Under the pieces are notes generated by a model. It worked only from the letters and a program-made list of their open reading frames with translations. It made no database searches and had not been told where the DNA came from. This document shows, piece by piece, positions 5,394-22,141 of a stretch of 32,253 nucleotides of DNA. This DNA is from Vulcanimicrobiaceae bacterium (GTDB lineage: Bacteria; Vulcanimicrobiota; Vulcanimicrobiia; Vulcanimicrobiales; Vulcanimicrobiaceae), in assembly GCA_046262595.1 (NCBI GenBank), contig JBHEMM010000030.1, positions 1-32,253 of the forward strand, given 5' to 3'. The stretch's first letter is position 1, and each line of letters begins with the position of its first letter. The position numbers were made by a program, and so were the translations under genes.

Positions 5394-6830
5394 ATGAAAT
5401 ACGATACGTACGCCTCTCCGTTCTCGTGGAGATACGGTCGCGCCGAATTGCGCGCGCTGTTCTCCGAAGTGGAGCGCCGCAAACTGTGGCGGGCCGTGTG
5501 GGTCGCGCTCGCGCAAGCGCAGAGCCGGCGGGGGCTGGTGAGCGAGGACGAAGTCGCCGACTTACGCGCGCATGCGGGCGACATCGACATCGAAGCGGCG
5601 CTGCAGATCGAACGCGAGATTCATCACGACCTCATGGCGGAGATCCGCGTGTTTTCCTCGCAGGCGAAGATCGGCGGCGGGAAACTGCACTTGGGCGCAA
5701 CCTCCATGGATATCGAAGACACGGTGGAAACGTATCGCGTGCGCCGCGCGATCGCTTCCGTCGGGGCCGCCATCGATGTGCTGCTTGGTTCATTTGCGCA
5801 AAAAATTCGCGAGTACGGCGACCTCGTCTGCATCGCGTTCACGCATCTCCAGCCGGCGGAGCCGACGACCCTCGGGTACCGCTTGGCGGTGTACGCGCAG
5901 GATCTGCTCATCGATCGCGATGCGCTGCGTTTCGCCTTTGAACACATGACGGCCAAGGGCCTGCGCGGCGCCGTCGGGACGGCGGCCTCATACGAGCAAC
6001 TGGTCAACAACAGCGGTGATTCAGCGGAACTCGAAAACGAAGTGCTCGGGGTCTTCGGATTGAGCGCGCGTGACATCAGCACGCAAACGTACCCGCGAAA
6101 GCTCGACTATCTTTTACTGAGCGCTATTGCCGGAGCGGCCGCGTCGCTTTCAAAGTTTGCGGCCGATGTGCGCATCTTGAGCTCGCCCGAGTTCGGCGAG
6201 GTGTTCGAACCGTTCGGCGCAACGCAGGTCGGCAGTTCCGCCATGCCGTTCAAGCGCAATCCGATCGTCTGCGAGCGCATCGGATCGTTGGCGCGGCTGC
6301 TGCCTGCCTACGCCGACGTCGCCTGGCAAAACGCGGCAACGAATTACTTGGAGCGCACGCTGGACGATTCAGCAAACCGCCGCACGATACTTCCCGAATC
6401 GCTGCTGTGTTTAGACGAAATCGTGCATCTCGCGACGCGCGTCATAACCGGATTGCGGGTCGACACGCTGCGCATCGCGCAGAACCTGCGCACGTATGGC
6501 CCGTTTGCCGGCACCGAACCGATTATGATGGAAGCCGTCCGTGCGGGCGGAAACCGGCAAGAACTGCACGAGTCGCTGCGCAGCGCCGCCATGCAGTCAT
6601 GGAACGAGATCGCGCAAGGCAAGAGCAACCCGCTGGGCCGCCTGTTGACCGAAGACCCCGAATTGACCAGCCGCGTCGATCCCGCGGAGATCCGCCGCAT
6701 GCTCGATCCCGCAAAACATGTCGGCACGGCGCCGCAGCGCGCACGCGTCTTGGCGGCACGCATCGAGGCGCTCGATCCGTTCCCTTCGCAGAAAGAGGCG
6801 CCTTCGATGCATCAGGATACGCACCGGTGA
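5394..6830 (+). CDS. purB: Adenylosuccinate lyase
   Basis: HLGATS, FTHLQPAEPTT, GSSAMPFKRNP, LERTLDDSANRR. The ORF-track N-terminal extension overlaps holA and is rejected. Confidence 0.95.
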   Translation: MKYDTYASPFSWRYGRAELRALFSEVERRKLWRAVWVALAQAQSRRGLVSEDEVADLRAHAGDIDIEAALQIEREIHHDLMAEIRVFSSQAKIGGGKLHLGATSMDIEDTVETYRVRRAIASVGAAIDVLLGSFAQKIREYGDLVCIAFTHLQPAEPTTLGYRLAVYAQDLLIDRDALRFAFEHMTAKGLRGAVGTAASYEQLVNNSGDSAELENEVLGVFGLSARDISTQTYPRKLDYLLLSAIAGAAASLSKFAADVRILSSPEFGEVFEPFGATQVGSSAMPFKRNPIVCERIGSLARLLPAYADVAWQNAATNYLERTLDDSANRRTILPESLLCLDEIVHLATRVITGLRVDTLRIAQNLRTYGPFAGTEPIMMEAVRAGGNRQELHESLRSAAMQSWNEIAQGKSNPLGRLLTEDPELTSRVDPAEIRRMLDPAKHVGTAPQRARVLAARIEALDPFPSQKEAPSMHQDTHR

Positions 6831-8029
6831 ATAAAGGTATCGAAATTGCGCGCGGCAAGACCAAAGTGCTGTATGAAGCAGCGGGCCAGCCCGACATGCT
6901 GGTCGTCAAGCAAACCGACTCGATCTCGGCCGGCGACGGCGCGCGGCGCAGCGACATTCCCGGCAAAGGACGCTTGGCGGCGCAAACCACGGCGCGCGTG
7001 TTCCGTCTGCTCAACCTGTGCGGCTTGCCGACGCATTATTTGAACGGCGGCGAGGACGACGACGACAACGAGATGCTCGTGCGCCGCTGCAACATGGTAC
7101 CGCTGGAAGTGGTGGTGCGCGGCGTCGCGGCCGGATCGCTGGTGAAACGCAACCCCGGCTTGCAGCGCGGTTCACTGCTGGTGCCGCGGATGGTCGAGTT
7201 CTTTTTCAAAGACGACGCGAACCACGATCCGCTTATCACGCCGGACCAAATGACGGCGCAGAACCTCGCGAATGCCGCGGAAGTTTCGGCGATGAGCGAG
7301 ATCGCGCGACTCGCGTTCGAAGTACTCGCACACGCATGGCGAAAACGCGACGTGCTGCTCGTGGACCTCAAAGTGGAGTTCGGGCGCTTGACCAGCGGCG
7401 AGAACAAGGGTCAGCTCGTTATCGCCGACGTGATCGACAACGACTCGTGGCGCATTTGGCCGCAAGGCCGCGAAGACCGCATGCTGGACAAGCAAATGTA
7501 CCGCAATCTTGAAACGATCGACGATGCGGCGCTCGCACAGGTAAAAGCGGCATACGAACAGGTTGCCGATTTAACGGGCGGCTTCCCGGTAATGCGGCCC
7601 GGCATGGTCGCGCTGTTTGCCGAGTCCGGTGACTTCACGGCGCAGCTCAACGGCGTCGCGCAGGCGCTGGGTCAGCTTGGCTTGCCCGTCATCCGGCACG
7701 TTGCGAGCGCCGTACGCACGCCGGGATACGTTCTTCAACTGCTGCAGCAGCACGACGCGACGTTCGCGCGTTTGCTGTATGTGACGTTCGCCGGTTTGGA
7801 CGGCGCATTGGGCCCGCTGGTTGAAAACGCAACGAGCAATCCGGTGATCGGCGGCTCCGGTGACCCCTCCGACGTCGCGCTGCAGTGCGCAAAAGTTCTG
7901 GCGCTCGAAGACACGGTGCTGTTCGGCCGAACGCTCCTCGTGCAGACGAACGCGCGTTCTGCGGTGCTGCAGGCCGACGCGCATTTGAACGCGCAGCAGC
8001 AGCAGGCGCAACAGCCGAATCTTGGATAA
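6827..8029 (+). CDS. purC: SAICAR synthetase fused to a degenerate C-terminal PurE-like domain (PAICS architecture)
   Basis: GKTK, PLEVVVR, EFFFKDDANHDP, LVDLKVEFG, ADVIDNDSWRIWP, DKQMYR; C-terminal ~140 aa aligns by eye with the AIR carboxylase fold. GTGA overlap with purB. Confidence 0.92.
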   Translation: MNKGIEIARGKTKVLYEAAGQPDMLVVKQTDSISAGDGARRSDIPGKGRLAAQTTARVFRLLNLCGLPTHYLNGGEDDDDNEMLVRRCNMVPLEVVVRGVAAGSLVKRNPGLQRGSLLVPRMVEFFFKDDANHDPLITPDQMTAQNLANAAEVSAMSEIARLAFEVLAHAWRKRDVLLVDLKVEFGRLTSGENKGQLVIADVIDNDSWRIWPQGREDRMLDKQMYRNLETIDDAALAQVKAAYEQVADLTGGFPVMRPGMVALFAESGDFTAQLNGVAQALGQLGLPVIRHVASAVRTPGYVLQLLQQHDATFARLLYVTFAGLDGALGPLVENATSNPVIGGSGDPSDVALQCAKVLALEDTVLFGRTLLVQTNARSAVLQADAHLNAQQQQAQQPNLG

Positions 8030-10313
8030 TTTCCCCGTCCGAGGACTCGACGAGGAAAAGCTGCGCGCCGCTGCGTCGCATGCCGGCTTGGCTTTACGCG
8101 CGGACGAACTGCGGCGGATCGCGCAAACGCTGGGGCGCGATCCTTCGATCGTCGAAGCGCATGCGTTCGATGCGCAGTGGAGCGAGCACTGCTCCTATAA
8201 GAGCAGCAGGCATTTGCTCAAGCGTCTTCCGGTCGATGGACCGGCAGTGATGCAAGGCCCCGCCGAGGATGCCGGCATTCTGCATCTCGGTGAATGGAAC
8301 GGCGAGAAGTACGGCGTCGTCATCGCTCACGAGTCGCATAACCATCCTTCACAGGTCGTTCCTTTTGAAGGCGCTGCCACCGGCATCGGCGGCATCGTGC
8401 GCGACGTGCTCTGCATGGGTGCGCGCGTCGTGGCGCTGGCGGATCCGCTGCGCTTTGGGCGGATCGAAGACCCGGCATCGCATCAGCGGTACGTGGCGCA
8501 AGGCGTGGTTGACGGTATCTCCGCGTACGGCAATGCGATCGGCGTGCCCAACATTGCCGGCGACGTGTATTTCGACGAACAGTTCGACGACAATTGCGTG
8601 GTCAACGTGGTCGCAGTCGGCTTGGTGAAGCAGGACGACATCGTGCATTCCGCGGCGCCGCCCGGCTCCGCGGGCTGGGATATCGTTCTGGTCGGGAAAG
8701 CGACGGACCGCAGCGGTTTCGGCGGAGCGGCGTTCTCATCCGTAACCCTCGATGAAGAAGATGCGGACGCAAACCGCGGCGCCGTTCAAGTGCCCGATCC
8801 GTTTTTGAAAAATGTGATCATGCGCGCGACGTACCGCGTGTTCGAGTATCTGCGCGCCAACGGCATCACCGCCGGCTTCAAAGACCTCGGCGCAGGCGGC
8901 ATCATGGGGTGCAGCGCGGAGCTGTGCAGCACCGGCGGATTCGGCGCGATCGTCGATCTCGACGACGTGAGCACGGCGATCGGGCAAATGCCCCCCGAGG
9001 TCATCGCAATCGGTGAAACGCAGGAACGGCTGTGCTGGGTACTGCCGGCAGCGGTCACCCCCGACGTTCTGCGCATCTACAATGAAGAGTTCTCCCTGCC
9101 CCGGATAGCGCGCGGCGCCTGTGCGAGTGTCATCGGCACGGTCCAGCAAGAAAAACGCTACGTCATGCGCCACGGCGGTGCGACCGTGATGGACGTGCCG
9201 ATCGACTTTCTCACGGGGTCCATTCGCGACGAGTTGCCGGTTCGCCCGATGAGCGAACGCAAAGTGGACGATCGCCGCAAGCGTTACATCGAACCGGGCC
9301 ACGACGTCCGGGAGGTTTTAGACAAAGTGCTCGCGCACCGCGACGTGTGCTCGCGCGAACCGCTTTACGTGCGCTACGACAGCGTGGTGCGCGGCGTGAC
9401 GGTCGTCCCGCGCGGCGTGGCGGATGCGGGCGTCATTGCCCCGGTTGATGGTTCGCCGCTCGGCATTGCGCTGAGCGTTGCAGGCAATCCGCGCTACGGC
9501 AAACTGGACCCGTACCTTGGCGCACAGCACGCCGTACTTGAAGCAGTTCGTAAAACGGTCGCCGCGGGCGCGCGGCCGCTCGGGCTCACGGATTGCTTGA
9601 ATTTTGGCAATCCGCACAACGTGGAGCATTACTCCGAACTCGTGTATGCGATCGACGGCCTGGCGCTTGCAGCGCGCGCACTCGGCACGCCGTTTGTCTC
9701 CGGCAACGTCAGCTTGTACAACGAGTCGAAAGCGGGCAATGCGATTCCCGCATCGCCCATCGTCGCGTGCGTCGGCGGATTCACGGATATCGCAACGGTT
9801 TTGACCTCTCCGCTCAAGGGCGGCGGTCACGCGCTCTACGCCGTAGGAACGCCATACAACGCTATGGGCGGTTCGGTGCTCGCCGAGGTCCTGGGACAGA
9901 TCGGCGGACCGGTCCCGCCGATCGATTATCGCGCGGCGAGCGCCGATCTTGCGTTCGTTCAGCGGGCGGCGCGGGCAGGCATCATTCTGTCGGCAGGAGT
10001 GATCGGTTCGGGCGGAGCGCTCGTGCGGTTACTGCGCATGGCGTTTGCCGCCGCTTGCGCGATCGGTTTCTCGTTGGAAGCGCCGCGCGCTGCAGCTTGC
10101 GGGGAACTGGAACTGTTGTTCGGCGAGAACTGGGGGTTTGTGATCGAAACGGCGCAGCCGCAAGCGCTCGAAGCGCTCGCGACCGACGGCGTTGCGCTGC
10201 AGCGCATCGGCGCCACTGGTGCCGGCGGCGCCATCGCAATCGGCTCGGCGGTCTTTGAGACAGCTTTGCTGCGCGCTGCATGGATGCGGCCGCTGCAGGA
10301 GGTTTATCCGTAG
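8022..10313 (+). CDS. purL: FGAM synthase synthetase subunit (small PurL)
   Basis: WSEHCSYKSS, ESHNHPS, GAATGIGGIVRD, DLGAGG, ETQER, TDCLNFGNP, VSGNVSLYNE. TTG start is uncertain. Confidence 0.95.
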   Translation: MDNFPVRGLDEEKLRAAASHAGLALRADELRRIAQTLGRDPSIVEAHAFDAQWSEHCSYKSSRHLLKRLPVDGPAVMQGPAEDAGILHLGEWNGEKYGVVIAHESHNHPSQVVPFEGAATGIGGIVRDVLCMGARVVALADPLRFGRIEDPASHQRYVAQGVVDGISAYGNAIGVPNIAGDVYFDEQFDDNCVVNVVAVGLVKQDDIVHSAAPPGSAGWDIVLVGKATDRSGFGGAAFSSVTLDEEDADANRGAVQVPDPFLKNVIMRATYRVFEYLRANGITAGFKDLGAGGIMGCSAELCSTGGFGAIVDLDDVSTAIGQMPPEVIAIGETQERLCWVLPAAVTPDVLRIYNEEFSLPRIARGACASVIGTVQQEKRYVMRHGGATVMDVPIDFLTGSIRDELPVRPMSERKVDDRRKRYIEPGHDVREVLDKVLAHRDVCSREPLYVRYDSVVRGVTVVPRGVADAGVIAPVDGSPLGIALSVAGNPRYGKLDPYLGAQHAVLEAVRKTVAAGARPLGLTDCLNFGNPHNVEHYSELVYAIDGLALAARALGTPFVSGNVSLYNESKAGNAIPASPIVACVGGFTDIATVLTSPLKGGGHALYAVGTPYNAMGGSVLAEVLGQIGGPVPPIDYRAASADLAFVQRAARAGIILSAGVIGSGGALVRLLRMAFAAACAIGFSLEAPRAAACGELELLFGENWGFVIETAQPQALEALATDGVALQRIGATGAGGAIAIGSAVFETALLRAAWMRPLQEVYP

Positions 10314-11059
10314 TGGCAGCGCGCAAAGTCGCCGTTCTCGTGTTCCCCGGCACGAACAGCGAGGACGAAACGTGCCGCATTCTGCGGGCGGTCGGCTTGG
10401 ACGCACACCTGGTGCACTGGAGCTGCGCCGCGAGGCTGCCGCAGTACGAAGCGTTCGTGCTGCCGGGCGGGTTTTCGTACGAGGACCGCATCCGCGCCGG
10501 CGCCGTTGCGGCACACGACGCCATGTTGGATTACGTGATCGACGCGGCACAAAACGAAAAACTGATTTTGGGCATTTGCAACGGCGCGCAAATTCTGCTC
10601 GAGGCGGGGCTCGTGCCCGGAACCGGTACCATCCGGCGGCCCACCGCTGCGTTCACGCACAATGCGCCCGTCCCGCACTTTATCTGCAAGCACGTGCGCG
10701 TGCGCTTGAACGTGGAGCCCTCCCGCAGCCCCTTCACCGCCGGAATGAACCGCGAAGAAGTGTTCCCCGCCTGGGCCGCGCACGGTCAGGGACGGCTGGC
10801 GGCAACGCCGGCGCATCTGGAGGAATTGGTGCACGGCCGCCACGTGGCGTTCGTATACGAGAACGGTGCGCCGAACGGCTCCGCGCTCGACTGCGCCGGC
10901 CTTTTGAACGATGCGGGCAACGTGTGCGCGATCATGCCGCATCCGGAACGCGATGCTTGGTCGTTCAATCATCCGGACCGGCGTGAAGGCGGGATTCTGA
11001 CGCCGTCGGGCGGCGTTCGCTTTTTTCAAAGCTTCGCCCAAGCAATGGAACGGCCATGA
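10313..11059 (+). CDS. purQ: FGAM synthase glutaminase subunit
   Basis: FPGTN, LPGGFSYED, GICNGAQIL (nucleophile Cys), MPHPER; SD AGGAGG 10297-10302; TAGTG overlap with purL. Confidence 0.95.
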   Translation: MAARKVAVLVFPGTNSEDETCRILRAVGLDAHLVHWSCAARLPQYEAFVLPGGFSYEDRIRAGAVAAHDAMLDYVIDAAQNEKLILGICNGAQILLEAGLVPGTGTIRRPTAAFTHNAPVPHFICKHVRVRLNVEPSRSPFTAGMNREEVFPAWAAHGQGRLAATPAHLEELVHGRHVAFVYENGAPNGSALDCAGLLNDAGNVCAIMPHPERDAWSFNHPDRREGGILTPSGGVRFFQSFAQAMERP

Positions 11060-11478
11060 CGCAGAGGACGATTGCCGTCAAGTTGAAGATTCCCGACAAC
11101 GAAGCGTACACGGCGCTCGTTGCGCTGCAGCGTTTAGGCGTCGCCGTTTCGAAGGTCGAGCGAGCCGAGATCTGGCAGTTCGACGACGAGGGGCTGACGC
11201 CGGTGGAAGCGCGTTTTGCGAGCAATGAGATGCTGTACAACTCGAACAAGCACGAAATGCAGGTGCTCGACGGCGGGCGCCCACGCACCGGGGAGGTGTG
11301 GATCGAAGAGCTCGATGCCGCCGGCGTTCCGCTGCGCATGACGGGCGCCTCGCACGCCCGCCGTTACGTCGCCTGGCGGCTATACGGGCCGGACAAAATG
11401 TCTGCGGCGTCCGGCGTCGTGCGCGAAGCGGCCGAAAAACTCTTGTGCAACCCTGCGATCGAAAGGGCCCTTCAATGA
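11056..11478 (+). CDS. purS: Double-length PurS-like subunit of FGAM synthase
   Basis: Directly after purL-purQ with ATGA overlaps; C-terminal EKLLCNPAIE is the PurS signature, echoed mid-protein by MLYNSNKHE; 140 aa versus about 80 for usual PurS. Confidence 0.7.
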   Translation: MTQRTIAVKLKIPDNEAYTALVALQRLGVAVSKVERAEIWQFDDEGLTPVEARFASNEMLYNSNKHEMQVLDGGRPRTGEVWIEELDAAGVPLRMTGASHARRYVAWRLYGPDKMSAASGVVREAAEKLLCNPAIERALQ

Positions 11479-11891
11479 ATCAGCCTTACACCATTGCCAC
11501 GCTGGGCTCCCATTCGGCGCTGCAGATACTCAAAGGCGCGCACGACGAAGGTTTTCGCACCCTCGCGATTGCGAACCGCGAGACAGAGAGCTTGTACCGT
11601 TCCTTCGGGTTCGTCGATGAAGTGATCGGCATCGATACGTATCAGGCGTTTCCCGGCCTGTTCGGCGCGTTCTGCATCGAGACGATCATCACGCCGGACA
11701 TGCAATTTTACATCATGGAGATTTCCGCGCGCATCGTAGCGGGTACGAACCTTTTTATCGACGGCTCTCCGTACTCGTATTTGAACTACTCCGAGCCGAT
11801 GTCCACCGGCCGGCGCATTGCGCGCGAACTCAAAAACGCACTTTTGACGGGGAACCTACGTTTCGTACTCGATGATTCGAGCGTGCTTTAA
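11475..11891 (+). pseudogene. purP: Archaeal-type PurP (formate:AICAR ligase family) with a large in-frame internal deletion; 138 aa
   Basis: N-terminal IATLGSHSALQILKGAHDEGFRT joined directly to C-terminal GLFGAFCIE...EISARIVAGTN...MSTGRRIARE; the central ATP-grasp core is absent. Could also be an assembly collapse. Confidence 0.75.
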
Positions 11892-12984
11892 GTCTCTTGC
11901 GGTCCTGGCCTGCGCCGCCGCGCTCTGCGTCCCGGCGAAGGCGGCGACATTGGCGGATCCGGACGTGCTCTACGCACAGATGAACGCTGTTCTCCAGCGC
12001 GGGGACCGCGAAGGCTGGACGCTGTTCAACCGCGAGTACCTGCTGGCGACGATCTTCGATGCCGGGCGCGCCTATTCGCTGCAGCGGCCCGACGATCCGA
12101 AGTACCCGCAGGTGGAGCAAATGACGGTCGACGCTGCGGCGGATCTGCATTACGATCCGCTGATCAATCACGAAGCCGTGGAATGGTACGTGCGCGAGGC
12201 CGCAGTCGACATCGAGAAGACGTCGGCCGATCCCGCCGAAGCGGCGAAAGCACGCGATTTGCTGGCGCGCGTGGATGCGCTTGAAGATCCGGCCGCGCTG
12301 GCGAAATTTGCGGACGAAGACGCGGCCGCAAACATCGTCCAATATCCGCGCGATGCGGACGCGCTGCTCGCGCGCGTCGAAGCGAACTGGCGCGGCTGGC
12401 TCATCACCCGTGACCCGTCATGGCGCGCGTGGGCGCTCGTGCGCGCCTCGCAGTTCGATTTTCCTATCGGCAGCCTGCCTTCATCGTGGGGCCCCGGCTT
12501 TCTGGCGTTCGTAAAAAGCGCCGCTCACGGCGGTCATGGCGTTACTGCGGCCGAGCGCGACAACGCGCAACTGATTTTGCAGAATCTGAAGAAATTGACC
12601 GCCCTAAAAGTCATCGCAAACGTGAACGCGCAGGCCTCACACGATCAGGTAATGACCACGCTTGCGCCGGCGGATGAATATTTCGGGCCGCTCGGCATGT
12701 CCATTTTAGGCATGCGCAACGAGATGAGCCGCGTAAACGCGATGATCGGGTTCGGCGAAGCGCAGCGCGAGAGCGATCCGGCGGTTCAGATCGCGCTGGC
12801 CATCGACGACCTTCACCGCGTGTACCCGCGCGACCGTGATGTGCCGAAACTGCTCTACGACATTCAAGACACGCTCGCCAAGATCGATACGCCGCAGGCG
12901 AAGACGGAGCGTGCGCACATGCGAGCGGTGCTCACGGTCGAGTATCAAGACACCAAGCAAGCGCACGATCTTTTGGGGCCGTAA
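11872..12984 (+). CDS. Secreted/exported, probably alpha-helical hypothetical protein
   Basis: 370-aa ORF with host-like codon usage and a signal peptide (SLAVLACAAALCVPAKA|A); overlaps the purP end by 20 nt. Confidence 0.75.
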   Translation: MIRACFKSLAVLACAAALCVPAKAATLADPDVLYAQMNAVLQRGDREGWTLFNREYLLATIFDAGRAYSLQRPDDPKYPQVEQMTVDAAADLHYDPLINHEAVEWYVREAAVDIEKTSADPAEAAKARDLLARVDALEDPAALAKFADEDAAANIVQYPRDADALLARVEANWRGWLITRDPSWRAWALVRASQFDFPIGSLPSSWGPGFLAFVKSAAHGGHGVTAAERDNAQLILQNLKKLTALKVIANVNAQASHDQVMTTLAPADEYFGPLGMSILGMRNEMSRVNAMIGFGEAQRESDPAVQIALAIDDLHRVYPRDRDVPKLLYDIQDTLAKIDTPQAKTERAHMRAVLTVEYQDTKQAHDLLGP

Positions 12985-13003: not shown

Positions 13004-14296
13004 CTAAGCGTTTATCGCAGCGAGGCTTGCCTCGAACGCACGAACGAATTCCGCCGAATCGCCATCGCTGAAAATGAGCGGCGGTTGAATGCGCATGATG
13101 TTGCCGAAGCGGCCGCCCTTTCCGACGAGCACGCCGCGCTTGCGCATCTCTTCGAGCATGCGCGTCGCCTCGGCGGCGGCGTACGTCTTGCGCGTGTCCT
13201 TGACGAGTTCGACGCCGATCATCAAGCCCCGCCCGCGCACCTCGCCGATGATCGGGTAACGCTGCTGCAGTTCGCGCAGAGCGCTCAAAAGCGTTTCGCC
13301 TTGCCGTTTGGCGTTTGCGATCAGGTGGTGTTTTTCAATGACATCGATCGTCACACGCGCAGCGCGGCTCGAAACGGGATTGCCGCCGAACGTGTTGATG
13401 TGCGGGCCTTTGAAAATGTCCGCAAGCTCCGGACGCGTGATGGTGATCCCGATGGGAACGCCGGAACCCAACCCTTTTGCCGACGTAATGATGTCCGGAA
13501 CCACTCCGTACGTTGCCGGCATCCCGAACATTCCGTCGCCTAAACGTCCCCACCCCGTTTGCACTTCATCGGCAATCAGCAGCGTTCCGAACGGTTCGAG
13601 CGTTTCGCGCAAGACCTTGAAGTACTCGGGCGGCGGCGTGATGATGCCGCCGACGCCGGCGATCGTTTCGGCGATCATCGCCGAAGGCGCGCCGTTGGTC
13701 TGCGTTTCGATCACGCGTTTGGCCGACTTGGCGCAGGCGATCTCGCAGGAAGGGTAGGTCAGGCCGAGCGGACAGCGATAGCAATACGGATTGGGCACGA
13801 ACGCGACGTGCGGATACTGCGCGGCGAAATTGCGCCAGTTGCTCTGCCCCGCCATCGCAACGGTATAGAGTGTCCGCCCGTGATAGGCGTGTTCGAGCGC
13901 CAGAAAATCCGGCGACTTCTTAGCCGTGCGCGCGACGACCGCCGCCATCTCATTCGCTTCCGAGCCGGAGTTGCCGAAGAAGCTTTTGCTCATGCCCTCG
14001 GGCGCGACGTCGGCGACTTTTTCGGCGAGATCCAGCATCTCTTCGGTCAAATACAGCGCGGAGACATGCAGCAGCTTCTTCGCCTGATCGGCGACGGCTT
14101 GCGCGACTTCCGTGTCGCCGTATCCCAGCGTGTTGGTTGCAATGCCGGCGAACGCATCGAGATATTCGTTGCCGCCGTCGTCGCGGACGCGCGTTCCTTC
14201 GCCTTCGACGAGCGTGAGCGGCTCCTCGTAATACGTCGTCTGCGCCGCGAAAAGATGATCGCTCGCGCGTTTTGCATTGTTTTTAAGCAGTCGCAT
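13004..14296 (-). CDS. Class III PLP aminotransferase, by context beta-alanine:2-oxoacid aminotransferase (PydD-like)
   Basis: SGSEANE, YHGRT, LIADEVQTGWGR, SAKGLGSG, NTFGGNP; last gene of the pyd operon. Confidence 0.88.
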   Translation of the reverse strand: MRLLKNNAKRASDHLFAAQTTYYEEPLTLVEGEGTRVRDDGGNEYLDAFAGIATNTLGYGDTEVAQAVADQAKKLLHVSALYLTEEMLDLAEKVADVAPEGMSKSFFGNSGSEANEMAAVVARTAKKSPDFLALEHAYHGRTLYTVAMAGQSNWRNFAAQYPHVAFVPNPYCYRCPLGLTYPSCEIACAKSAKRVIETQTNGAPSAMIAETIAGVGGIITPPPEYFKVLRETLEPFGTLLIADEVQTGWGRLGDGMFGMPATYGVVPDIITSAKGLGSGVPIGITITRPELADIFKGPHINTFGGNPVSSRAARVTIDVIEKHHLIANAKRQGETLLSALRELQQRYPIIGEVRGRGLMIGVELVKDTRKTYAAAEATRMLEEMRKRGVLVGKGGRFGNIMRIQPPLIFSDGDSAEFVRAFEASLAAINA

Positions 14297-15755
14297 TTGC
14301 CGCAGCCTCCTCGGGAACCGCCTGCGGCGCCGGCCGCATCAGCAGTTTGTATGCAATCAGTCCGCCGAGCAGACTGAAAATCCATCCTCCGCTCCACAAA
14401 AAGTGCAGCGGCGGCACGAACAGCCCCAACGCAGCGAGCGCCCACCCGGCAACGAGCGCGAGCGCCGCGCGTACGTTAAACCCGCGCGCATATGAGTAGA
14501 GGCCTTGCGGCTTGTAAAGTTCCGCTAAATCGATATAGCCGCGGCGAACGAGCCAGTAGTCCGCGATGGCAATGCCGTCGAACGACCCCAGCATCGCACC
14601 GTACGTGCCGAGCCATAAAAAGATGTACGACGAAAACGACGAGAGCACGTACCACGGCTGCATCGCCAGGCTGAGCAAGCCGGTAAGTACCGCCCCCGCG
14701 GCAAAGGTAATGCGCTGCGGCCAAAGGTTCTCTAAAGCGCGCGCCGGCGCCATCACGTTTGCGCCGACGTTGATCGTCACGGATGAGAGGATCACGACGA
14801 TGCCGGCGATGACGATCTCCGGCGTGGGAAAGCGCACGATCAGATCGACCGGATTCCAGAGCGCCTTGTGAAAGAGGATGACGGTTGCCGAGGTCACCGC
14901 AATGCCGGCGAACGAAAATAGCGCCATCGCAACCGGCATCGAGAGGGCCTGCCCCAGCATCTGGCCGCGCTGCGTCTTCGCGTACCGGGTGTAATCCGGA
15001 ATGTTCAACGCCATGGTCGCCCAGAACGCAATGACGCCGACGACGGAGGGAAGAAAGGCATTCCAAAAGCCCGCGCCGTGAATCGTCGCGGGCGCCGCGA
15101 GCATCGGCCCGAATCCTCCTGCGCTGTGCGCCGCCCAAAAAACGAGCGCAATGGCGCCCACGGCCAGTGTCGGCGCCGCGATCTGCGCGAGACGTCCGAT
15201 CGCCTGCGGTCCGCGCATGGCGATGGCCACGTTTATTGCCCAAAACAGTGCAAAGGCGGCGCCCAAATGCAAGCCGATACCGTGCCAAAACGGCAAGATG
15301 CGCGTGAAGATTGCATCGAGCGCCTGGCCGCCGAACCACGAATTGATGCCGAACCATCCCGCCGCGATGATCGCGCGCGCGAGCGCCGGAATGTGCGCGC
15401 CGCGCGTGCCGAACCACAACCGCGCAAACACCGGATACGGAATGCCGTAGCGCGCGCCGGCGTGCGAGACCAGCAGTATTGCCGCAAGCACGACGGCGCT
15501 TCCGGAGAAGATGGAAAGCACCGATTCCCACCAGTTCATTCCCAGCGCTATCATGCCGCTCGCGAGCGAATACGTCGGCAAGCACAGGCACATGCCTATC
15601 CAGAGCGATGCGAATTTGCTTGCGCGCCACGAGTGTTCGGCGAGTGTGCACGGCCGCAGATCGTCGTTCCACATGCCGGCGTTCTTCGCGGCGGCGCGTA
15701 CGGCGTCGGGCGTGAGCACGATAACGTCGCCCACCTCCGCCTGCGTTGCCGTCAT
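14283..15755 (-). CDS. NCS1-family nucleobase (uracil/dihydropyrimidine) permease (PydP-like)
   Basis: Many hydrophobic segments; GARYGIPYPVFAR, GWFGI, FWATMALNIPDYTRY, IADYW; start ATG 15755. Confidence 0.9.
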   Translation of the reverse strand: MTATQAEVGDVIVLTPDAVRAAAKNAGMWNDDLRPCTLAEHSWRASKFASLWIGMCLCLPTYSLASGMIALGMNWWESVLSIFSGSAVVLAAILLVSHAGARYGIPYPVFARLWFGTRGAHIPALARAIIAAGWFGINSWFGGQALDAIFTRILPFWHGIGLHLGAAFALFWAINVAIAMRGPQAIGRLAQIAAPTLAVGAIALVFWAAHSAGGFGPMLAAPATIHGAGFWNAFLPSVVGVIAFWATMALNIPDYTRYAKTQRGQMLGQALSMPVAMALFSFAGIAVTSATVILFHKALWNPVDLIVRFPTPEIVIAGIVVILSSVTINVGANVMAPARALENLWPQRITFAAGAVLTGLLSLAMQPWYVLSSFSSYIFLWLGTYGAMLGSFDGIAIADYWLVRRGYIDLAELYKPQGLYSYARGFNVRAALALVAGWALAALGLFVPPLHFLWSGGWIFSLLGGLIAYKLLMRPAPQAVPEEAAANATA

Positions 15756-15757
15756 CG

Positions 15758-16642
15758 CTAGACGTACACCAAATCGTCGTACGTTTCGGGACGGCGATCG
15801 CGGTAAAACTGCCACGTATTGCGCACGTCGGTGATAATGCGGCGATCCATCGTGCCCAAAATCACCTCGTCACGGTCGCGACTGGCGGTCGCGACGAACT
15901 GCCCGCGCGGATCGACTATATACGACTGCCCGTAGAACTCGCCCATGTTCCAGGGCGTTTCCGTGCCCACGCGGTTGATCGCGCCCAAATAATAGCCGTT
16001 CGCGACGGCGTGCGCCGGCTGTTCGAGCTTCCACAGATACTCCGAGAGGCCGGCGACGGTCGCCGATGGATTGAACACGATCTCCGCGCCGTGCAATCCC
16101 AGCATACGCGCCCCTTCGGGAAAGTGGCGATCGTAGCAAATGTACACGCCGACCTTCGCGAACGCGGTATCGAAGACGGGATAGCCCAAATTACCCGGGC
16201 GGAAGTAATACTTCTCCCAGAAGCCGCACCCGGCGGGCCCGGCCTGCACCTGCGGCAGATGATGCTTGCGGTATTTGCCCAGATACGCGCCGTCCGCATC
16301 GATCACCGCCGCCGTGTTGTAATAGACGCCGGCAAATTCTTCTTCGTACATCGGAACGACGAGCACGATGCCGAGCTCTTTGGCAAGGTCCTGCATCAGG
16401 CGCGTCGTCGGCCCGTCGGGAATCGGCTCGACTGCGCCATACCACTTCGTCGTCTGTTCCGTGCAGAAATACGGGCCGTAAAACAGCTCCTGCAGGCAAA
16501 CGATCTGCGCGCCGCGCTGCTTCGCCTCGCGGATCATGCGCACGTGTTTTTCGATCGCGTTCTTTTTATGAACCTCGACGGGCTCGCTGCCGTCCGTGTC
16601 ATGATGCGCTTGAATCAACCCGATGCTGACTGTGGGTTCCAC
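15758..16642 (-). CDS. Nitrilase-family beta-ureidopropionase (N-carbamoyl-beta-alanine amidohydrolase)
   Basis: Glu-Lys-Cys triad: LQELF, YRKHH, ICYDRHFPE; FWEKYYFRPGNLG; SD AGGAGG before GTG 16642. Confidence 0.9.
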   Translation of the reverse strand: MEPTVSIGLIQAHHDTDGSEPVEVHKKNAIEKHVRMIREAKQRGAQIVCLQELFYGPYFCTEQTTKWYGAVEPIPDGPTTRLMQDLAKELGIVLVVPMYEEEFAGVYYNTAAVIDADGAYLGKYRKHHLPQVQAGPAGCGFWEKYYFRPGNLGYPVFDTAFAKVGVYICYDRHFPEGARMLGLHGAEIVFNPSATVAGLSEYLWKLEQPAHAVANGYYLGAINRVGTETPWNMGEFYGQSYIVDPRGQFVATASRDRDEVILGTMDRRIITDVRNTWQFYRDRRPETYDDLVYV

Positions 16643-16650
16643 GTGGCCTC

Positions 16651-18042
16651 CTAGAGCTGGACGGGGTAGAAGGGCGAGCTTTTTTGAAACCGGCCGGCGC
16701 CTTTGGTTCCGGTGAACGTCGTGCCGTCCGCAACTTTGCGGCCCCGCGAAAAAACGTACCGCGGGCTGCCGTGAATCGTCATGCCGTCGAAGACGTTGTT
16801 GTCGACGTTCATGTGGTGCGTCTTCGCCGAGATCGTGCGCGTCTTGGCCGGATCCCACACCACGATGTCGGCATCGCTGCCGGCGGCAATCGTGCCTTTG
16901 CGCGGAAACAGGCCGAACAGTTTTGCCGGGTTGGTACTGCCTAGAGCGACAAAGTTATTCAAGCCAAGCACCTTTCGGTTCACGCCCACCTCGTAAAGGA
17001 TCGCGAGGCGATCTTCAATCGTCGGCGCGCCGTTGGGGATTTTCGAGAAGTCGTTTCTGCCAAGTTCCTTTTGACCGCACAGATTGAACGAGCAGTGGTC
17101 GGAACCGAAGCTATGCAGCTCCAAGTTCTTGAGCTTGCGCAGCAGCACGTCTTGGTTCCATTTATCGCGGATCGGAGGAGAAAGGACGTATTTTGCACCG
17201 GCGAAATCCGGGCGCTCGTAGTCCGTGAAGTCGCATACCAGATATTGAGGGCACGTTTCGCCGTAAATGTTTAGGCCGCGCTTGCGGCCGTCAGAGACCG
17301 CATCCGCGGCCATCGCGCTCGAGACGTGCACCACGTAGAGCGGTGCCCCGGCGATTTCGGCAAGGCGAATTGCACGATGCGTGGCCTCACCTTCGCATTC
17401 GACCGGCCGCGTGAGTGCGTGCCACTTGGGCTCCGTTTTGCCTGCTGCCAGGGCCTGTTTGGTCGTCACCTCGATGACGTCGCCGTTTTCGGCATGCACT
17501 TGCACCAGCCCGCCATTCGCGGCGCAGGTCTGCAGCGTTTTGAAGATCGTTTCGTCGTCCACTTGCAGCACGTGTTTGTAGGCCATGAAGACCTTGAACG
17601 AATTCACGCCTTCCTCAGAAATCATGCGCGGGATCTCGGCCATCGTCTCGTCGCGGCCGTCGGCTATCGTCAAATGAAAGGCGTAGTCGATGCATGCTTT
17701 GCCGGATGCTTTTTGATGCCATGTCTTGAGCGCGTTCGCGAGCGAGTCGCCGCGCGTGTGCAGCGCGAAGTCGACGATCGTCGTCGTGCCGCCCATTGCG
17801 GCGGCGCGCGTCCCGGTTTCGAAGTCGTCCGCCGTGACGGTTCCGCCAAACGGCATGTCGAGATGCGTGTGCGGGTCGATGCCGCCCGGAAAGACGTACG
17901 CGCCGCTCGCGTCGACGATCTCATGCGTCCCGGCGGGCAAATTCACGCCGATCGCCGCAATCTGCTCGTCCTCGACGACCACGTCGCCGGGATAGGTGTC
18001 GGTGGCGGTCACGACGGTGCCGCCGCGGATCAGTAAACTCAA
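16651..18042 (-). CDS. hydA: Dihydropyrimidinase
   Basis: PGGIDPHTH, SFKVFMAYK (carbamylated Lys), VHAENG, VVHVS, GSDHC; TTG 18042 overlaps the preA stop. Confidence 0.95.
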   Translation of the reverse strand: MSLLIRGGTVVTATDTYPGDVVVEDEQIAAIGVNLPAGTHEIVDASGAYVFPGGIDPHTHLDMPFGGTVTADDFETGTRAAAMGGTTTIVDFALHTRGDSLANALKTWHQKASGKACIDYAFHLTIADGRDETMAEIPRMISEEGVNSFKVFMAYKHVLQVDDETIFKTLQTCAANGGLVQVHAENGDVIEVTTKQALAAGKTEPKWHALTRPVECEGEATHRAIRLAEIAGAPLYVVHVSSAMAADAVSDGRKRGLNIYGETCPQYLVCDFTDYERPDFAGAKYVLSPPIRDKWNQDVLLRKLKNLELHSFGSDHCSFNLCGQKELGRNDFSKIPNGAPTIEDRLAILYEVGVNRKVLGLNNFVALGSTNPAKLFGLFPRKGTIAAGSDADIVVWDPAKTRTISAKTHHMNVDNNVFDGMTIHGSPRYVFSRGRKVADGTTFTGTKGAGRFQKSSPFYPVQL

Positions 18043-19280
18043 GACGACCGTTCTTTCCAGGATTGCGAAGGCACGCCCGCATCCACACGCACCATTTCGA
18101 TGCAGTCTTGCACGGGACAGACCATCTGGCACAAATTGCAGCCGACGCACTCTTGTTCGTCCACGACGACCATGGCCGAACCATTCGTCCCTATGCGGTC
18201 GATGCACTGGTGTGCCGCGTCTTCGCAGGCGATATAGCACTTGTTGCAGCGGATACACTTGTCTTGATCGATCCGCGCGACGACCTTATAGTTGAGGTTG
18301 AGGTTCTCCCAGGTTGTGATGCGCGATGCCGCGGCGCCGGCGAGTACGGCGACGCTGCTCACGCCGCGCGAGTCCAGATAGCGCGAGAGGCCGTCGATCA
18401 TATCTTCAACAATGCGGAAACCATGATGCATGACGGCGGTGCAGACCTGGACGTTGCCGGCGCCCAGCAAGAGAAACTCCGCCGCATCGCGCCACGTTTC
18501 GATGCCGCCGATGCCGGAGATCGGAATATTCACTTGCGGATCGCGGGCGCACTCGTTCACCATGTTCAGCGCAATAGGCTTCACCGCCGCGCCGCAATAA
18601 CCGCCATGGCTGCTCATGCCGTCGACGTGCGGAACCGGGTTCCACGTCTCGAGATCCACGCCGATAATGCTGTTGATCGTGTTTATTAGGCTGATCGCGT
18701 CCGCGCCCCCGTTCACCGCGGCGCGGGCGACGGGGCGGATGTCGGTGATGTTGGGCGTGAGTTTCACGATGACCGGAACGCGCGCGGCTTCTTTAACCCA
18801 CGTCGAAACTTGCTCGATGAGGTCCGGATGCTGGCCCACTGCTGCACCCATGCCGCGTTCGCTCATGCCGTGCGGGCAGCCGAAGTTCAGTTCGAATCCG
18901 TCGATGTCCACTTCTTGCACGCGCTTGACCAGGTCGTGCCATGCCTGCCGTTCGCATACTTCCATTAGCGATGCCACGACCGCGCGTTCGGGAAAAGTTT
19001 TCTTGCACTGCGCGATCTCGCGCAGATTCTCGTCGAGCGGCCGGTCGGTGATCAGCTCGATGTTGTTCATGCCGATCATCTTGTTCTGCTTGTAGTCCAG
19101 CGCGGCGAAGCGCGAGGTGACGTTGACGATCGGCGTTCCCAGCGTTTTCCACACGGCGCCGCCCCAGCCGGCCTCGAATGCGCGCATCACTTGATAGCCG
19201 CTGTTCGTCGGCGGCGCCGATGCGAGCCAGAACGGATTGGGACTTTTGATGCCCGCGAGATTGGTTTGCAGATTAGCCAT
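18039..19280 (-). CDS. preA: Dihydropyrimidine dehydrogenase FMN/Fe-S subunit
   Basis: NPFWLASAPPT, ELNFGCPHGMSERGMG, KLTPNITDI, INTINS; C-terminal 2x[4Fe-4S] motifs CIRCNKC and CVGCNLC. Confidence 0.95.
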   Translation of the reverse strand: MANLQTNLAGIKSPNPFWLASAPPTNSGYQVMRAFEAGWGGAVWKTLGTPIVNVTSRFAALDYKQNKMIGMNNIELITDRPLDENLREIAQCKKTFPERAVVASLMEVCERQAWHDLVKRVQEVDIDGFELNFGCPHGMSERGMGAAVGQHPDLIEQVSTWVKEAARVPVIVKLTPNITDIRPVARAAVNGGADAISLINTINSIIGVDLETWNPVPHVDGMSSHGGYCGAAVKPIALNMVNECARDPQVNIPISGIGGIETWRDAAEFLLLGAGNVQVCTAVMHHGFRIVEDMIDGLSRYLDSRGVSSVAVLAGAAASRITTWENLNLNYKVVARIDQDKCIRCNKCYIACEDAAHQCIDRIGTNGSAMVVVDEQECVGCNLCQMVCPVQDCIEMVRVDAGVPSQSWKERSS

Positions 19281-20562: not shown

Positions 20563-20574
20563 GCGCGTACCTCT

Positions 20575-22083: not shown

Positions 22084-22141
22084 CCCTACGTGTTCGACGC
22101 GTCGGCGGGTGGTCTTGCGAGAAGTGTCCAACGACGCGGCC
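22084..22141. promoter_or_regulatory. Compact divergent control region between the pyd operon and the purP-like gene
   Basis: 58-bp head-to-head gap with no SD on either side; palindrome CGACGCGTCG 22095-22104; AAGA-N16-CGAA on - and GGGT-N17-CCAA on +. Confidence 0.45.

Follow-up and report, generated by a model that had tools for sequence, protein, structure and literature searches.

In PAICS (structures 2h31, 6yb8 and 4ja0), a SAICAR synthetase forms the N-terminal part of the protein and a PurE fold the C-terminal part. Class II PurE is found as a stand-alone, active enzyme in Treponema denticola (3rg8 and 3rgg). A PurE-like domain of low similarity is present in the double-domain PurE-PurE' protein of Methanobacteria; in PMC3261824, PurE' is described as possibly structural and needed for subunit assembly, and the second domain is required according to genetics.

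The gene presented here, purC-E*, lies in a window of 32,253 nucleotides, the whole stretch of DNA that was analysed, from a soil bacterium of the phylum Eremiobacterota (Vulcanimicrobiota). The alignments support its reading as a PAICS-like PurC-PurE fusion with a carboxylase half stripped of the catalytic histidine and of the substrate loops. The order of the domains is that of PAICS, as is their mutual arrangement in the predicted model, with 30–33% identity in structural alignments. Compared with PAICS, the protein has lost the catalytic His, the P-loop and the 70s loop, along with a deleted stretch of 26 residues that includes the fifth strand. Unlike animal PAICS, the gene is bacterial and operon-encoded. 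The C-terminal domain shares the fold of the T. denticola PurE (target TM 0.75–0.77; E 6.4e-4), which has the His and the loops that are missing here. Its role may be structural, as perhaps that of the methanobacterial PurE', which in contrast is archaeal and fused to an active PurE (PMC3261824).

Gene, operon and domains

The gene stands in a purine operon.

5394–6830, + strand: purB, adenylosuccinate lyase, 478 residues from the MKYDTY start, with Pfam domains Lyase_1 and ADSL_C
6827–8029, + strand: purC-E*, whole open reading frame, 400 residues, SAICAR synthetase with a degenerate PurE-like C-terminal domain
6845–7516, + strand: SAICAR synthetase (PurC) domain, residues 7–230, PF01259 with E 1.2e-60
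7592–8008, + strand: PurE-fold pseudo-domain, residues 256–394, delimited with AlphaFold2 (AF2), Foldseek and a PurE HMM
8022–10313, + strand: purL, with Pfam domains AIRS, AIRS_C and FGAR-AT linker
10280–11059, + strand: purQ, with Pfam domain GATase_5

The GTG start of purC-E* overlaps the stop codon of purB (GTGA), and its own TAA stop (8027–8029) is overlapped over 8 nt by purL, which starts with TTG. Judged from these overlapping junctions, purC-E* appears to be translationally coupled to both purB and purL. The order purB-purC*-purL-purQ recurs around genes of the same degenerate form in the best 80 of 587 related genome stretches. There, purB lies upstream at 75 of 78 loci, ending at most 60 nt from the gene at 63 of them, and the start/stop overlap [GA]TGA is found at 71 of 78. 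Downstream, purL is present at 77 of the 80 loci and purQ at 67.

The N-terminal domain scores 205.6 bits against PF01259 (SAICAR_synt; cut-off 20) and 156.6 bits against TIGR00081, which is under the equivalog cut-off of 189.9. It superimposes onto solved PurC structures (2ywv, 3nua and 2gqr) with target TM-scores of 0.88–0.92 in Foldseek. The PAICS-type motifs KRNPG, FFKDDANHDP, ADVIDNDSWRIWP and DKQMYR are present. These, together with FAESGD, SAVRTP, AGLDGALG and LQADAHL of the C-terminal half, had been quoted by the first-pass annotation, and every one of them was found in the translation. Across 112 fused proteins, animals included, 36 columns are invariant, all between residues 10 and 226 except L328. 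The 35 that belong to the N-terminal domain are all retained in the window protein, among them G10, K11, T12, K13, E94, R98, S104, R108, K128, D180, K182, E184, D201, R209, K222 and R226. From these residues the domain is judged to be an intact SAICAR synthetase.

The best solved relatives of the protein are insect PAICS (4ja0, E 6.6e-68) and human PAICS (2h31, E 8.7e-58). The AF2 model of the full protein (pLDDT 93.3) superimposes onto human PAICS 6yb8_A with TM-scores of 0.88/0.84 over 422 alignment columns. The C-terminal region, which had been assigned to PurE on the basis of the letters, does have a PurE fold in the model, with target TM-scores of 0.72–0.77 to the PurE chains 3trh and 3rg8 (Foldseek). 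It consists of four strands instead of five, plus a long C-terminal helix. The match to the AIRC profile (PF00731) is partial: residues 269–342 align with profile positions 10–82 of 148 only, and the score of 28.4 bits is below the cut-off of 30. The NCBIfam purE model TIGR01162 gives 32.6 bits for a cut-off of 149.6. A custom PurE HMM matches the domain in two pieces, at profile positions ~5–87 and ~119–160, and does so in 81 of 81 sources.

Decay of the carboxylase half

The altered elements of the PurE-like domain were located by alignment to 4ja0, 2h31 and the intact bacterial fusions.

7616–7633, + strand: old P-loop, FAESGD where MGSxSD is expected from the PAICS alignment
7706–7717, + strand: old SAH[KR] motif, now SAVR, the catalytic His being replaced by Val296 (GTA, 7712–7714)
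7787–7810, + strand: old 70s loop, FAGLDGAL where VAGRSNGL is expected from the PAICS alignment
7850–7864, + strand: site of a 26-residue deletion, with GGSGD left, from the alignments

In the alignment to PAICS, FAESGD is paired with MGSTSD, SAVR with SAHK and AGLDGALG with AGRSNGLG, in agreement with the substitutions reported from the letters alone. The position of the catalytic His is occupied by Ala in 36, Thr in 24, Ser in 17 and Val in 2 of 79 orthologs of this degenerate form, and by His in none; His is found in 1 of the 6 members of an intermediate clade and in 25 of 25 intact fusions. In the class I and II enzymes this His is universally conserved and its mutation abolishes complementation, as stated in PMC9376930, where it is also given as the sole possible proton acceptor near the substrate, its mutation inactivating the enzyme. 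The same paper lists 18 AIR carboxylase active-site residues for human PAICS, of which 6 are identical and 1 is conservatively replaced in the window protein; human His303 aligns to the Val. The Arg/Lys following the His position is kept in only 28 of the 79 orthologs, the P-loop columns vary, and the 70s loop is variable and partly gapped.

At the deletion site, intact relatives have CPxxGxxWxGMEILSSLxLPSGVAS.... Between residues 341 and 347, five residues are found in 75 of 79 orthologs and four to eight in the remaining four, compared with 31 in 13 of 13 intact relatives of the same phylum, so that 26 residues are missing after the PVI motif. The first-pass annotation had put the loss at about 25, and it is found in all 79 orthologs. 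They carried the fifth strand and the preceding loop, which is the '100s' loop of PurE. In PurE structures this segment presumably makes contacts between subunits and completes the active site of the neighbouring subunit. As such contacts would be lost, the quaternary structure may differ from that of PAICS. From the missing residues, the domain is predicted to be without AIR carboxylase activity.

Relatives, descent and selection

Metagenome records named Eremiobacterota, Armatimonadota and Patescibacteria contain intact PurC-PurE fusions of about 424 residues. The clade nearest to the window protein (51–56% identity over the full length) bears the name of the same phylum; its named members are mostly Eremiobacterota rather than animals. 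This family, exemplified by P0289 (named Candidatus Tumulicola/Eremiobacteraeota, with Armatimonadota and Patescibacteria members), shares with the window protein the start NKGxE[IV]ARGKTK and the insert GGEDxDxNEM. Unlike the window protein, it keeps IMGSxxD, SAHK, AGRSNALS and the 31-residue segment. Degenerate and intact forms are both found in records named Candidatus Tumulicola.

Six proteins of 422–423 residues (P0374, P0295, P0386, P0319, P0385 and P0393) form an intermediate clade with 55–59% identity to the window protein. The blocks FPVM, TPGYLLQL and DATFARL are common to this clade and the degenerate family, which differ in that the clade does not have the deletion. Its GSxxD and GRSN motifs are partly kept and the His is replaced by Gln, Leu or Ser in five of the six. 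In a quick IQ-TREE reconstruction of 66 rows with SH-aLRT support, the 19 rows of the degenerate clade (support 99) have as their sister group the intermediate clade (6 rows, 100), with a support of 98 for their union, which makes it the closest sister clade. The sister group of the two combined is the intact Eremiobacterota-like clade (13 rows, 99), with 100 for the whole. The score of the AIRC profile falls in steps along this series, from 111.6 bits in the intact P0289 to 101.7 and 89.4 in intermediates (89–102 bits in the clade), 28.4 in the window protein, 21.7 in P0122 and none in P0123. A graded series of relatives connects the C-terminal domain to intact PurE domains. The gene had been called an animal-type PAICS fusion in a bacterium. 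The PAICS-like fusion agrees with the alignments and the model; the term 'animal-type', which hints at an oddity or at a gene acquired from animals, is misleading in view of the intact bacterial fusions and of the tree.

Relatives are encoded in 587 genome stretches, of which the best 80 are all full-frame with 65–87% identity. The reading frame, noted as intact at the outset, is so in 78 of 78 full-length orthologs, which have 394–403 residues at 65–87% identity. Long blocks of columns in the C-terminal domain are 90–100% conserved. In the SAxx-TPG segment, R290, H291 and P299 are present in 79 of 79, T298 in 78 and S294 in 66. The dN/dS comparison across orthologs that had been proposed gave 0.125 for the PurC domain, 0.224 for the C-terminal domain, 0.175 for this domain without the old loops and 0.471 for the old loops (NG86, 539 of 3081 pairs, 0.05 < dS < 1), which are rough values because dS is ~0.9, near saturation, and the pairs are non-independent. 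The value for the C-terminal domain is well below 1, and the domain is held by purifying selection. With its catalytic residues gone and its fold under purifying selection, it is classed as a putative pseudoenzyme domain.

Proposed role and source of CAIR

Our preferred reading, to which a probability of about 0.55 is given, is that the domain is a pseudoenzyme kept as an assembly module and descended from a fused class II PurE in a bacterial ancestor. The N-terminal domain would work as SAICAR synthetase. The C-terminal domain would go back to a PurE of class II (AIR carboxylase), joined to PurC already in this ancestor, and would have no catalysis left. AIR carboxylase activity would have become dispensable along the branch that ends in the window gene. 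The catalytic residues may have drifted first, as in the 422–423-residue sister clade without the deletion; the 26 residues of the fifth strand and its preceding loop would then have been deleted, and the P-loop and 70s loop would have decayed. The remaining four-stranded PurE-like module would most likely self-associate as the cores of PurE and PAICS do, and keep the PurC domains together in an oligomer like that of PAICS. The CAIR that PurC uses as substrate would be supplied by another protein, either the intact paralog where it is present or a separate PurE.

Self-association was evaluated by structure prediction with four copies of residues 252–400. The complex score was 0.58, compared with 0.01 for the best control. 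Among proteins of solved structure, 20 of 30 one-chain pairs and 1 of 23 single chains reach the mark used for this score, a calibration outside which the four-copy run lies. The four-copy runs have at least 68% of contacts in common and a partner pLDDT of at least 78. As the prediction passes its controls, it fits the idea of a scaffold; the score may nevertheless reflect the model's memory of, or likeness to, solved PurE and PAICS octamers. Conservation at the predicted interface does not exceed that elsewhere in the domain (mean majority frequency 0.737 for 54 residues versus 0.744 for 81; Mann-Whitney p 0.62).

The enzyme that makes CAIR was searched for around the gene and beyond. Neither purE nor purK is present in the window, as had been remarked in the first pass, according to Pfam on 25 open reading frames and to the custom PurE HMM on all open reading frames of at least 80 residues. 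At the 80 related loci, the same HMM detected no purE up to 10 kb away from the gene. Querying the Atlas with an intact PurE domain gave PurE clusters from archaea, spirochaetes and Chloroflexota at 0.85–0.86, and none that led to an Eremiobacterota PurE. The terms purE, purK and K01588 were not found in the supplements of the Eremiobacterota genome papers PMC9758169 and PMC11180709, from which absence is not implied. Degenerate and intact forms were not matched to one contig among the clusters listed, a comparison of low power because the lists are partial and many genomes are outside the protein set. The degenerate form is found on contigs of 2.83, 3.42 and 3.56 Mb, and no intact-family cluster is listed on a contig so large; for this reason some genomes may lack the intact paralog.

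Two other candidates in the window were set aside. The open reading frame at 11872–12984 was ruled out as the missing enzyme, being without a Pfam or NCBIfam match and having, by eye, a signal-peptide-like N-terminus. A conserved 'mini-PurP' was also ruled out: the contiguous short form exists only in the window among the loci checked, the others having a purP paralog that is full-length or, in L001, split.

It is possible, but we consider it doubtful, that the degenerate domain co-assembles with an active PurE, be it the intact paralog or a stand-alone enzyme, and so sets PurC beside the production of CAIR. In PurE-type cores, which are homo-oligomeric, the active sites lie at the subunit interfaces, so that mixed assemblies are conceivable. 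A partner may exist in the intact fusion family, which at 51–56% identity carries the name of the same phylum, with records also named Tumulicola, and self-association of this PurE-like domain is predicted. An E. coli two-hybrid screen has PurK, PurE and PurC as central interactors, according to the review PMC10912719, and PurE' may serve subunit assembly in Methanobacteria (PMC3261824). Against such docking, no purE lies within 10 kb at the 80 loci, and the 2.83–3.56 Mb contigs of the degenerate form exceed any contig among the intact matches listed, which suggests genomes with the degenerate form only. If many Eremiobacterota were of this kind and had no PAICS-like AIR carboxylase, which is proposed tentatively and with low confidence, either the domain would be an obligate assembly partner, recruiting a separate PurE to a mixed PurE-like core and passing CAIR straight to PurC, or CAIR would be made by an enzyme unrelated to PurE.

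The partly conserved SAxx-TPG segment (R290, H291, P299, T298 and S294, as counted above) and the old loops, which at a dN/dS of 0.47 are not fully neutral, could be remnants of a non-catalytic pocket in which AIR, CAIR or another nucleotide is still bound, as a means of regulating the PurC domain. Such sensing is unlikely: Arg or Lys is found at the phosphate-binding position in only 28 of 79 orthologs, the columns of the P-loop and 70s loop are highly variable, the latter gapped, and the deleted segment is the one that presumably completes the site of the neighbouring subunit. Less probable again is a functionless relic, decaying and pending loss. The faster evolution of the domain (0.224 versus 0.125 for the N-terminal domain), that of the catalytic loops, faster still (0.471), and a Pfam match now under threshold would agree with decay, but the constant length of 394–403 residues in frame in all 78 full-length orthologs at 65–87% identity, a dN/dS well under 1, the confident AF2 fold and the long blocks of 90–100% conserved columns argue against it. 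That the domain is still an AIR carboxylase, acting through other residues, is hardly to be expected. No other AIR carboxylase is near the gene in 81 sources, and some large contigs seem to be without the intact paralog, which would favour residual activity; yet the general-base His is gone in 79 of 79, replaced by Ala, Thr, Ser or Val, which are unable to accept a proton, and no alternative His, Asp or Glu is conserved in the variable loops of the 79 orthologs. PMC9376930 leaves no other proton acceptor near the substrate.

PAICS-like fusions extend beyond animals. A natural PAICS core without AIR carboxylase chemistry is a tool to separate the role of scaffold from catalysis and from the channelling of CAIR. 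In the source records these proteins are named either simply PurC or 'AIR carboxylase family protein', as is the case for the degenerate P0401 with the second name, and because of such names pathway reconstructions can wrongly count the AIR-to-CAIR step as present. Eremiobacterota is a widespread soil phylum, and the misnaming bears on the reconstruction of its purine pathway. The intact, drifting and deleted clades offer an example, dated by the tree, of how a catalytic domain becomes a non-catalytic module in a central pathway; if many genomes do have the degenerate form only, the series would trace the change from one half of a bifunctional enzyme to a structural subunit.

The purC-E* gene and its carboxylase half

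The gene purC-E* encodes a PurC domain followed by a PurE-like C-terminal domain (C-domain).

6827-8029, + strand: purC-E*, ORF translated into 400 aa

Its GTG start is shared with the purB stop as GTGA at the upstream junction, and its TAA stop (8027-8029) sits 8 nt within purL, counted from the purL TTG start. Every motif quoted in the first-pass annotation was found in the translation, and the claimed replacement of the catalytic His by Val was borne out by the codon GTA at 7712-7714. In Pfam, SAICAR_synt matched residues 7-230 (E 1.2e-60). The alignment to AIRC (PF00731) that had been suggested was run and gave a partial match only, in which residues 269-342 align to profile positions 10-82 of 148; its score of 28.4 bits is lower than the gathering score of 30. 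The NCBIfam scores were 156.6 bits for purC, and 32.6 bits for purE versus a cut-off of 149.6. The top sequence matches among solved structures were insect PAICS 4ja0 (E 6.6e-68) and human PAICS 2h31 (E 8.7e-58); stand-alone PurE chains reached E 6e-4 at best, the others being weaker.

The AlphaFold2 model of the protein, calculated with an input alignment of 37 rows, has a mean pLDDT of 93.3 and a pTM of 0.89. Its first Foldseek match in the PDB is human PAICS 6yb8_A (E 1.8e-38, query TM 0.88, target TM 0.84), and insect PAICS comes next. Taken by itself, the N-domain superimposes onto solved PurC with target TM of 0.88-0.92, and the C-domain onto the PurE chains 3trh and 3rg8/3rgg with 0.72-0.77, in agreement with the PurE fold proposed earlier. 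The modelled C-domain consists of four strands (260-265, 288-292, 316-321 and 340-342), one fewer than the PurE fold, with helices 347-359 and 363-394 after the fourth strand.

The passages of PMC9376930 on the human AIRc site define it by 18 residues (M272-D277, S301-K304, V328-L335) and present His303 as the sole possible proton acceptor near the substrate, universally conserved across class I and II PurE, mutation of which abolishes complementation. By sequence alignment to PAICS, 6 of the 18 residues are kept in the window protein, with one conservative change (Lys to Arg), and Val296 pairs with human His303. An alignment was made of the window protein and 78 full-length orthologs from related genomes (79 sequences, the dead family). 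The His column contains Ala in 36, Thr in 24, Ser in 17 and Val in 2, and His in none of the 79. The Arg/Lys that comes next is kept in only 28/79, and variation is high at the P-loop and 70s-loop columns. Between residues 341 and 347, there are 5 residues in 75 of the 79 and 4-8 in the rest; as intact relatives hold 31 at this stretch, 26 residues are missing in the dead family, close to the deletion of ~25 aa reported after the PVI motif. A class II PurE HMM, our own build from ten intact domains, matched purC-E* in two pieces (profile ~5-87 and ~119-160) in 81/81 sources. Loss of the His, variability of the loops, absence of the 26 residues and splitting of the HMM match strongly indicate, at the level of sequence, that the carboxylase half is inactive.

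Intact relatives and descent

The 120 best homologs (71-88% identity, 340-421 aa) originate, where the source is named, from Candidatus Eremiobacterota or Baltobacteraceae. A search of 1.84 billion representatives returned 2873 matches at E≤0.001. Alignment of 17 fused forms, designated by their cluster representatives, distinguished three kinds: a dead, window-like kind (P0122, P0123); an intact kind (P0128, P0130, P0131 and others) with GSxSD, SAHK, AGRSN[AG]LG and the PP...SSLRxPSG segment; and a second degenerate set (P0139, P0151, P0157). Members of this second set, 387-395 aa long, end in a degenerate PurE-like tail and carry a deletion where the window protein has its own.

Searching with P0128, then P0289, reached an intact family of ~424 aa with, among the matches listed, ~84 clusters at ≥71% identity to P0289. 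Among the sources named for it are Candidatus Tumulicola sp., Candidatus Eremiobacteraceae and Candidatus Eremiobacteraeota; other intact fusions bear the names Armatimonadetes, Patescibacteria and insects. Intact proteins with an Eremiobacterota name share 51-56% identity with the window protein and have lineage-specific N-terminal features in common with it. Tumulicola is placed in Vulcanimicrobiaceae, the current name for Baltobacteraceae, and the dead form is present in the Tumulicola-titled loci L026, L028 and L049. A third group of 422-423 aa without the deletion (P0374, P0295, P0386, P0319, P0385, P0393) is mixed in its catalytic state, with His in 1/6 and Q, L or S in 5/6. The Pfam AIRC score drops stepwise from 111.6 bits for P0289 to 101.7 for P0319, 89.4 for P0374, 28.4 for the window protein and 21.7 for P0122; there was no AIRC match for P0123 and P0139.

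A quick IQ-TREE phylogeny of 66 rows, with SH-aLRT support only, was built from P0122 and P0123 with 17 sequences out of the 79 in the dead family, the 6 intermediates of 422-423 aa, 13 of the ~84 listed intact Eremiobacterota-like clusters, the 3 second-type degenerates, 6 animal-like fusions and 13 other intact fusions; 6 PurC-only proteins served to root the tree as outgroup. The 19 rows of the dead clade group with support 99 and the 6 intermediates with 100, and these two clades are sisters, their union being supported at 98. The sister of this union is the intact Eremiobacterota-like clade (13 rows, 99), the whole being supported at 100. The animal-like sequences lie in another part of the tree, among bacterial fusions that include Armatimonadota-named ones. 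As they group with bacterial fusions and apart from the window gene, the PurC-PurE fusion is not peculiar to animals, and the 'animal-type' label of the first-pass annotation is not retained. The window gene derives from an intact bacterial fusion, and the topology suggests that residue drift preceded the deletion. P0139, P0151 and P0157 lie on long branches, with support of only 17 for their monophyly; since they are placed inside the animal-like clade, their decay is independent.

The purine locus and a candidate source of CAIR

One genome per species was scanned, which yielded at least 587 stretches encoding relatives; the titles of the best 80 of these loci are nearly all Eremiobacterota or Vulcanimicrobiota, several being titled just 'bacterium' or 'uncultured bacterium', with no phylum given. 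The gene order is stable: ribBA, ribH, an ORF without known identity, holA-like, purB, purC-E*, purL, purQ, then purP paralog, secreted-looking ORF, purP, guaA and purD. In the best 80 loci, purL is downstream in 77 and purQ in 67. Upstream, purB is present in 75/78 loci and ends ≤60 nt away in 63, with a [GA]TGA overlap at the junction in 71/78. Start codons of the orthologs are GTG (52), ATG (24) and ATT (2). Three loci titled Verrucomicrobiia (two) or Candidatus Acidoferrum (one) (L011, L023, L038) look like mislabelled or mixed bins, as they contain an Eremiobacterota-type gene (71-74% identity) in the same synteny.

Other features of the window are the following.

943-2358, + strand: ribBA ORF, with an HTH_3 match at residues 12-56, before the DHBP synthase domain
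11472-11891, + strand: remnant (~139 aa) of a purP paralog (formate-dependent FAICAR synthetase), inside ORF 11298-11891
11872-12984, + strand: 370-aa ORF, N-terminus signal-peptide-like by eye, no match in Pfam or NCBIfam
13004-22161, - strand: gene block resembling reductive pyrimidine degradation
21983-23242, + strand: full-length archaeal-type purP (DUF1246 + DUF1297) within the bacterial purine cluster
26716-30011, - strand: two adjoining large ORFs (535 + 563 aa) between purD and a Bax1-I family gene, with retropepsin-like aspartyl protease domains (Asp_protease_2, gag-asp_proteas)

The HTH_3 match may be the product of a too-early ORF start. In the purP-paralog remnant, PurP profile positions ~1-51 are joined directly to ~281-354, so that the central part was deleted in frame. 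A full-length paralog (~340-440 aa) occupies the same place in 7/8 other inspected loci with a match, the eighth match (L004) running off the contig end; there was none at the inspected locus of L026, and in L001, the closest relative, the paralog is split over two ORFs. The archaeal-type purP matches NCBIfam formate--phosphoribosylaminoimidazolecarboxamide ligase (E 1e-66) and was found in 61/80 related loci. The minus-strand block encodes a class III aminotransferase, a cytosine/purine-family permease, a CN hydrolase, an amidohydrolase, two dihydropyrimidine dehydrogenase-like subunits and an aldehyde dehydrogenase. Placed between ORF 11872-12984 and purP, which adjoin in most related loci, it looks like an insertion; the 370-aa ORF is kept inside the purine cluster in 56/80 loci.

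As previously noticed, the window contains no purE or purK detected with Pfam on ORFs or the PurE HMM. Across 80 related loci, each taken with as much as 10 kb of flanking DNA on either side (8799 ORFs), the HMM matched only the fused gene. An intact paralog is a candidate source of CAIR. Among the matches listed, no contig, compared by length in bp, was common to dead-form and intact-form clusters. The largest dead-form contigs listed (2,827,001, 3,421,103 and 3,562,638 bp) exceed every intact-form contig listed (maximum 2,647,984 bp), a weak hint that some genomes may be without the intact paralog.

Selection, predicted self-association and possible role of the PurE-like domain

The dN/dS comparison across orthologs proposed by the first-pass annotation was carried out by the Nei-Gojobori method.

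Median dN/dS in codon alignments, from 539 of 3081 pairs with 0.05<dS<1; values are rough because dS is ~0.9 (near saturation) and pairs share history
PurC domain: 0.125
C-domain: 0.224
C-domain minus 30 former loop codons: 0.175
Former loop codons (524 pairs): 0.471

As all values are far below 1, that of the C-domain included, this domain is kept by selection, with its former catalytic loops much freer.

Self-association was predicted with four copies of residues 252-400, a 112-row alignment, three runs and three controls. The median score of the three runs was 0.58 versus 0.01 for the best control, four copies being outside the calibration, in which the mark was reached by 20/30 proteins known from solved structures as pairs of one chain, and by 1/23 known as single chains. 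The runs have at least 68% of contacts in common, with partner pLDDT of at least 78. This pass may come from likeness to solved complexes, as PurE and PAICS octamers are already solved. The modelled contact residues, which include 290-303, 325-341, 349-360 and 366-388, are no more conserved than the remaining C-domain (mean majority frequency 0.737 versus 0.744, p 0.62). Given the caveats on calibration and on likeness to solved complexes and the lack of extra conservation at the contacts, the predicted complex supports a scaffold role only modestly.

Fused PurCE is termed 'common in eukaryotes' in a 2011 archaeal survey. A 2024 review (PMC10912719) places PAICS in eukaryotes, with PurE and PurC as separate proteins in bacteria, and describes PurK, PurE and PurC as central interactors in E. 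coli. A limited literature search found no description of an inactive PurE domain fused to PurC in a bacterium, nor of an AIR carboxylase as a pseudoenzyme. In automatic annotation, proteins of this family are called PurC or 'AIR carboxylase family protein'. The initial observation is confirmed and its interpretation partly supported: the PurE domain is retained and appears dead, the fusion is not 'animal-type', and the role of the domain as scaffold, docking partner or other is what we infer. The purC-E* product is a PAICS-like fusion whose second half is a pseudo-PurE domain.
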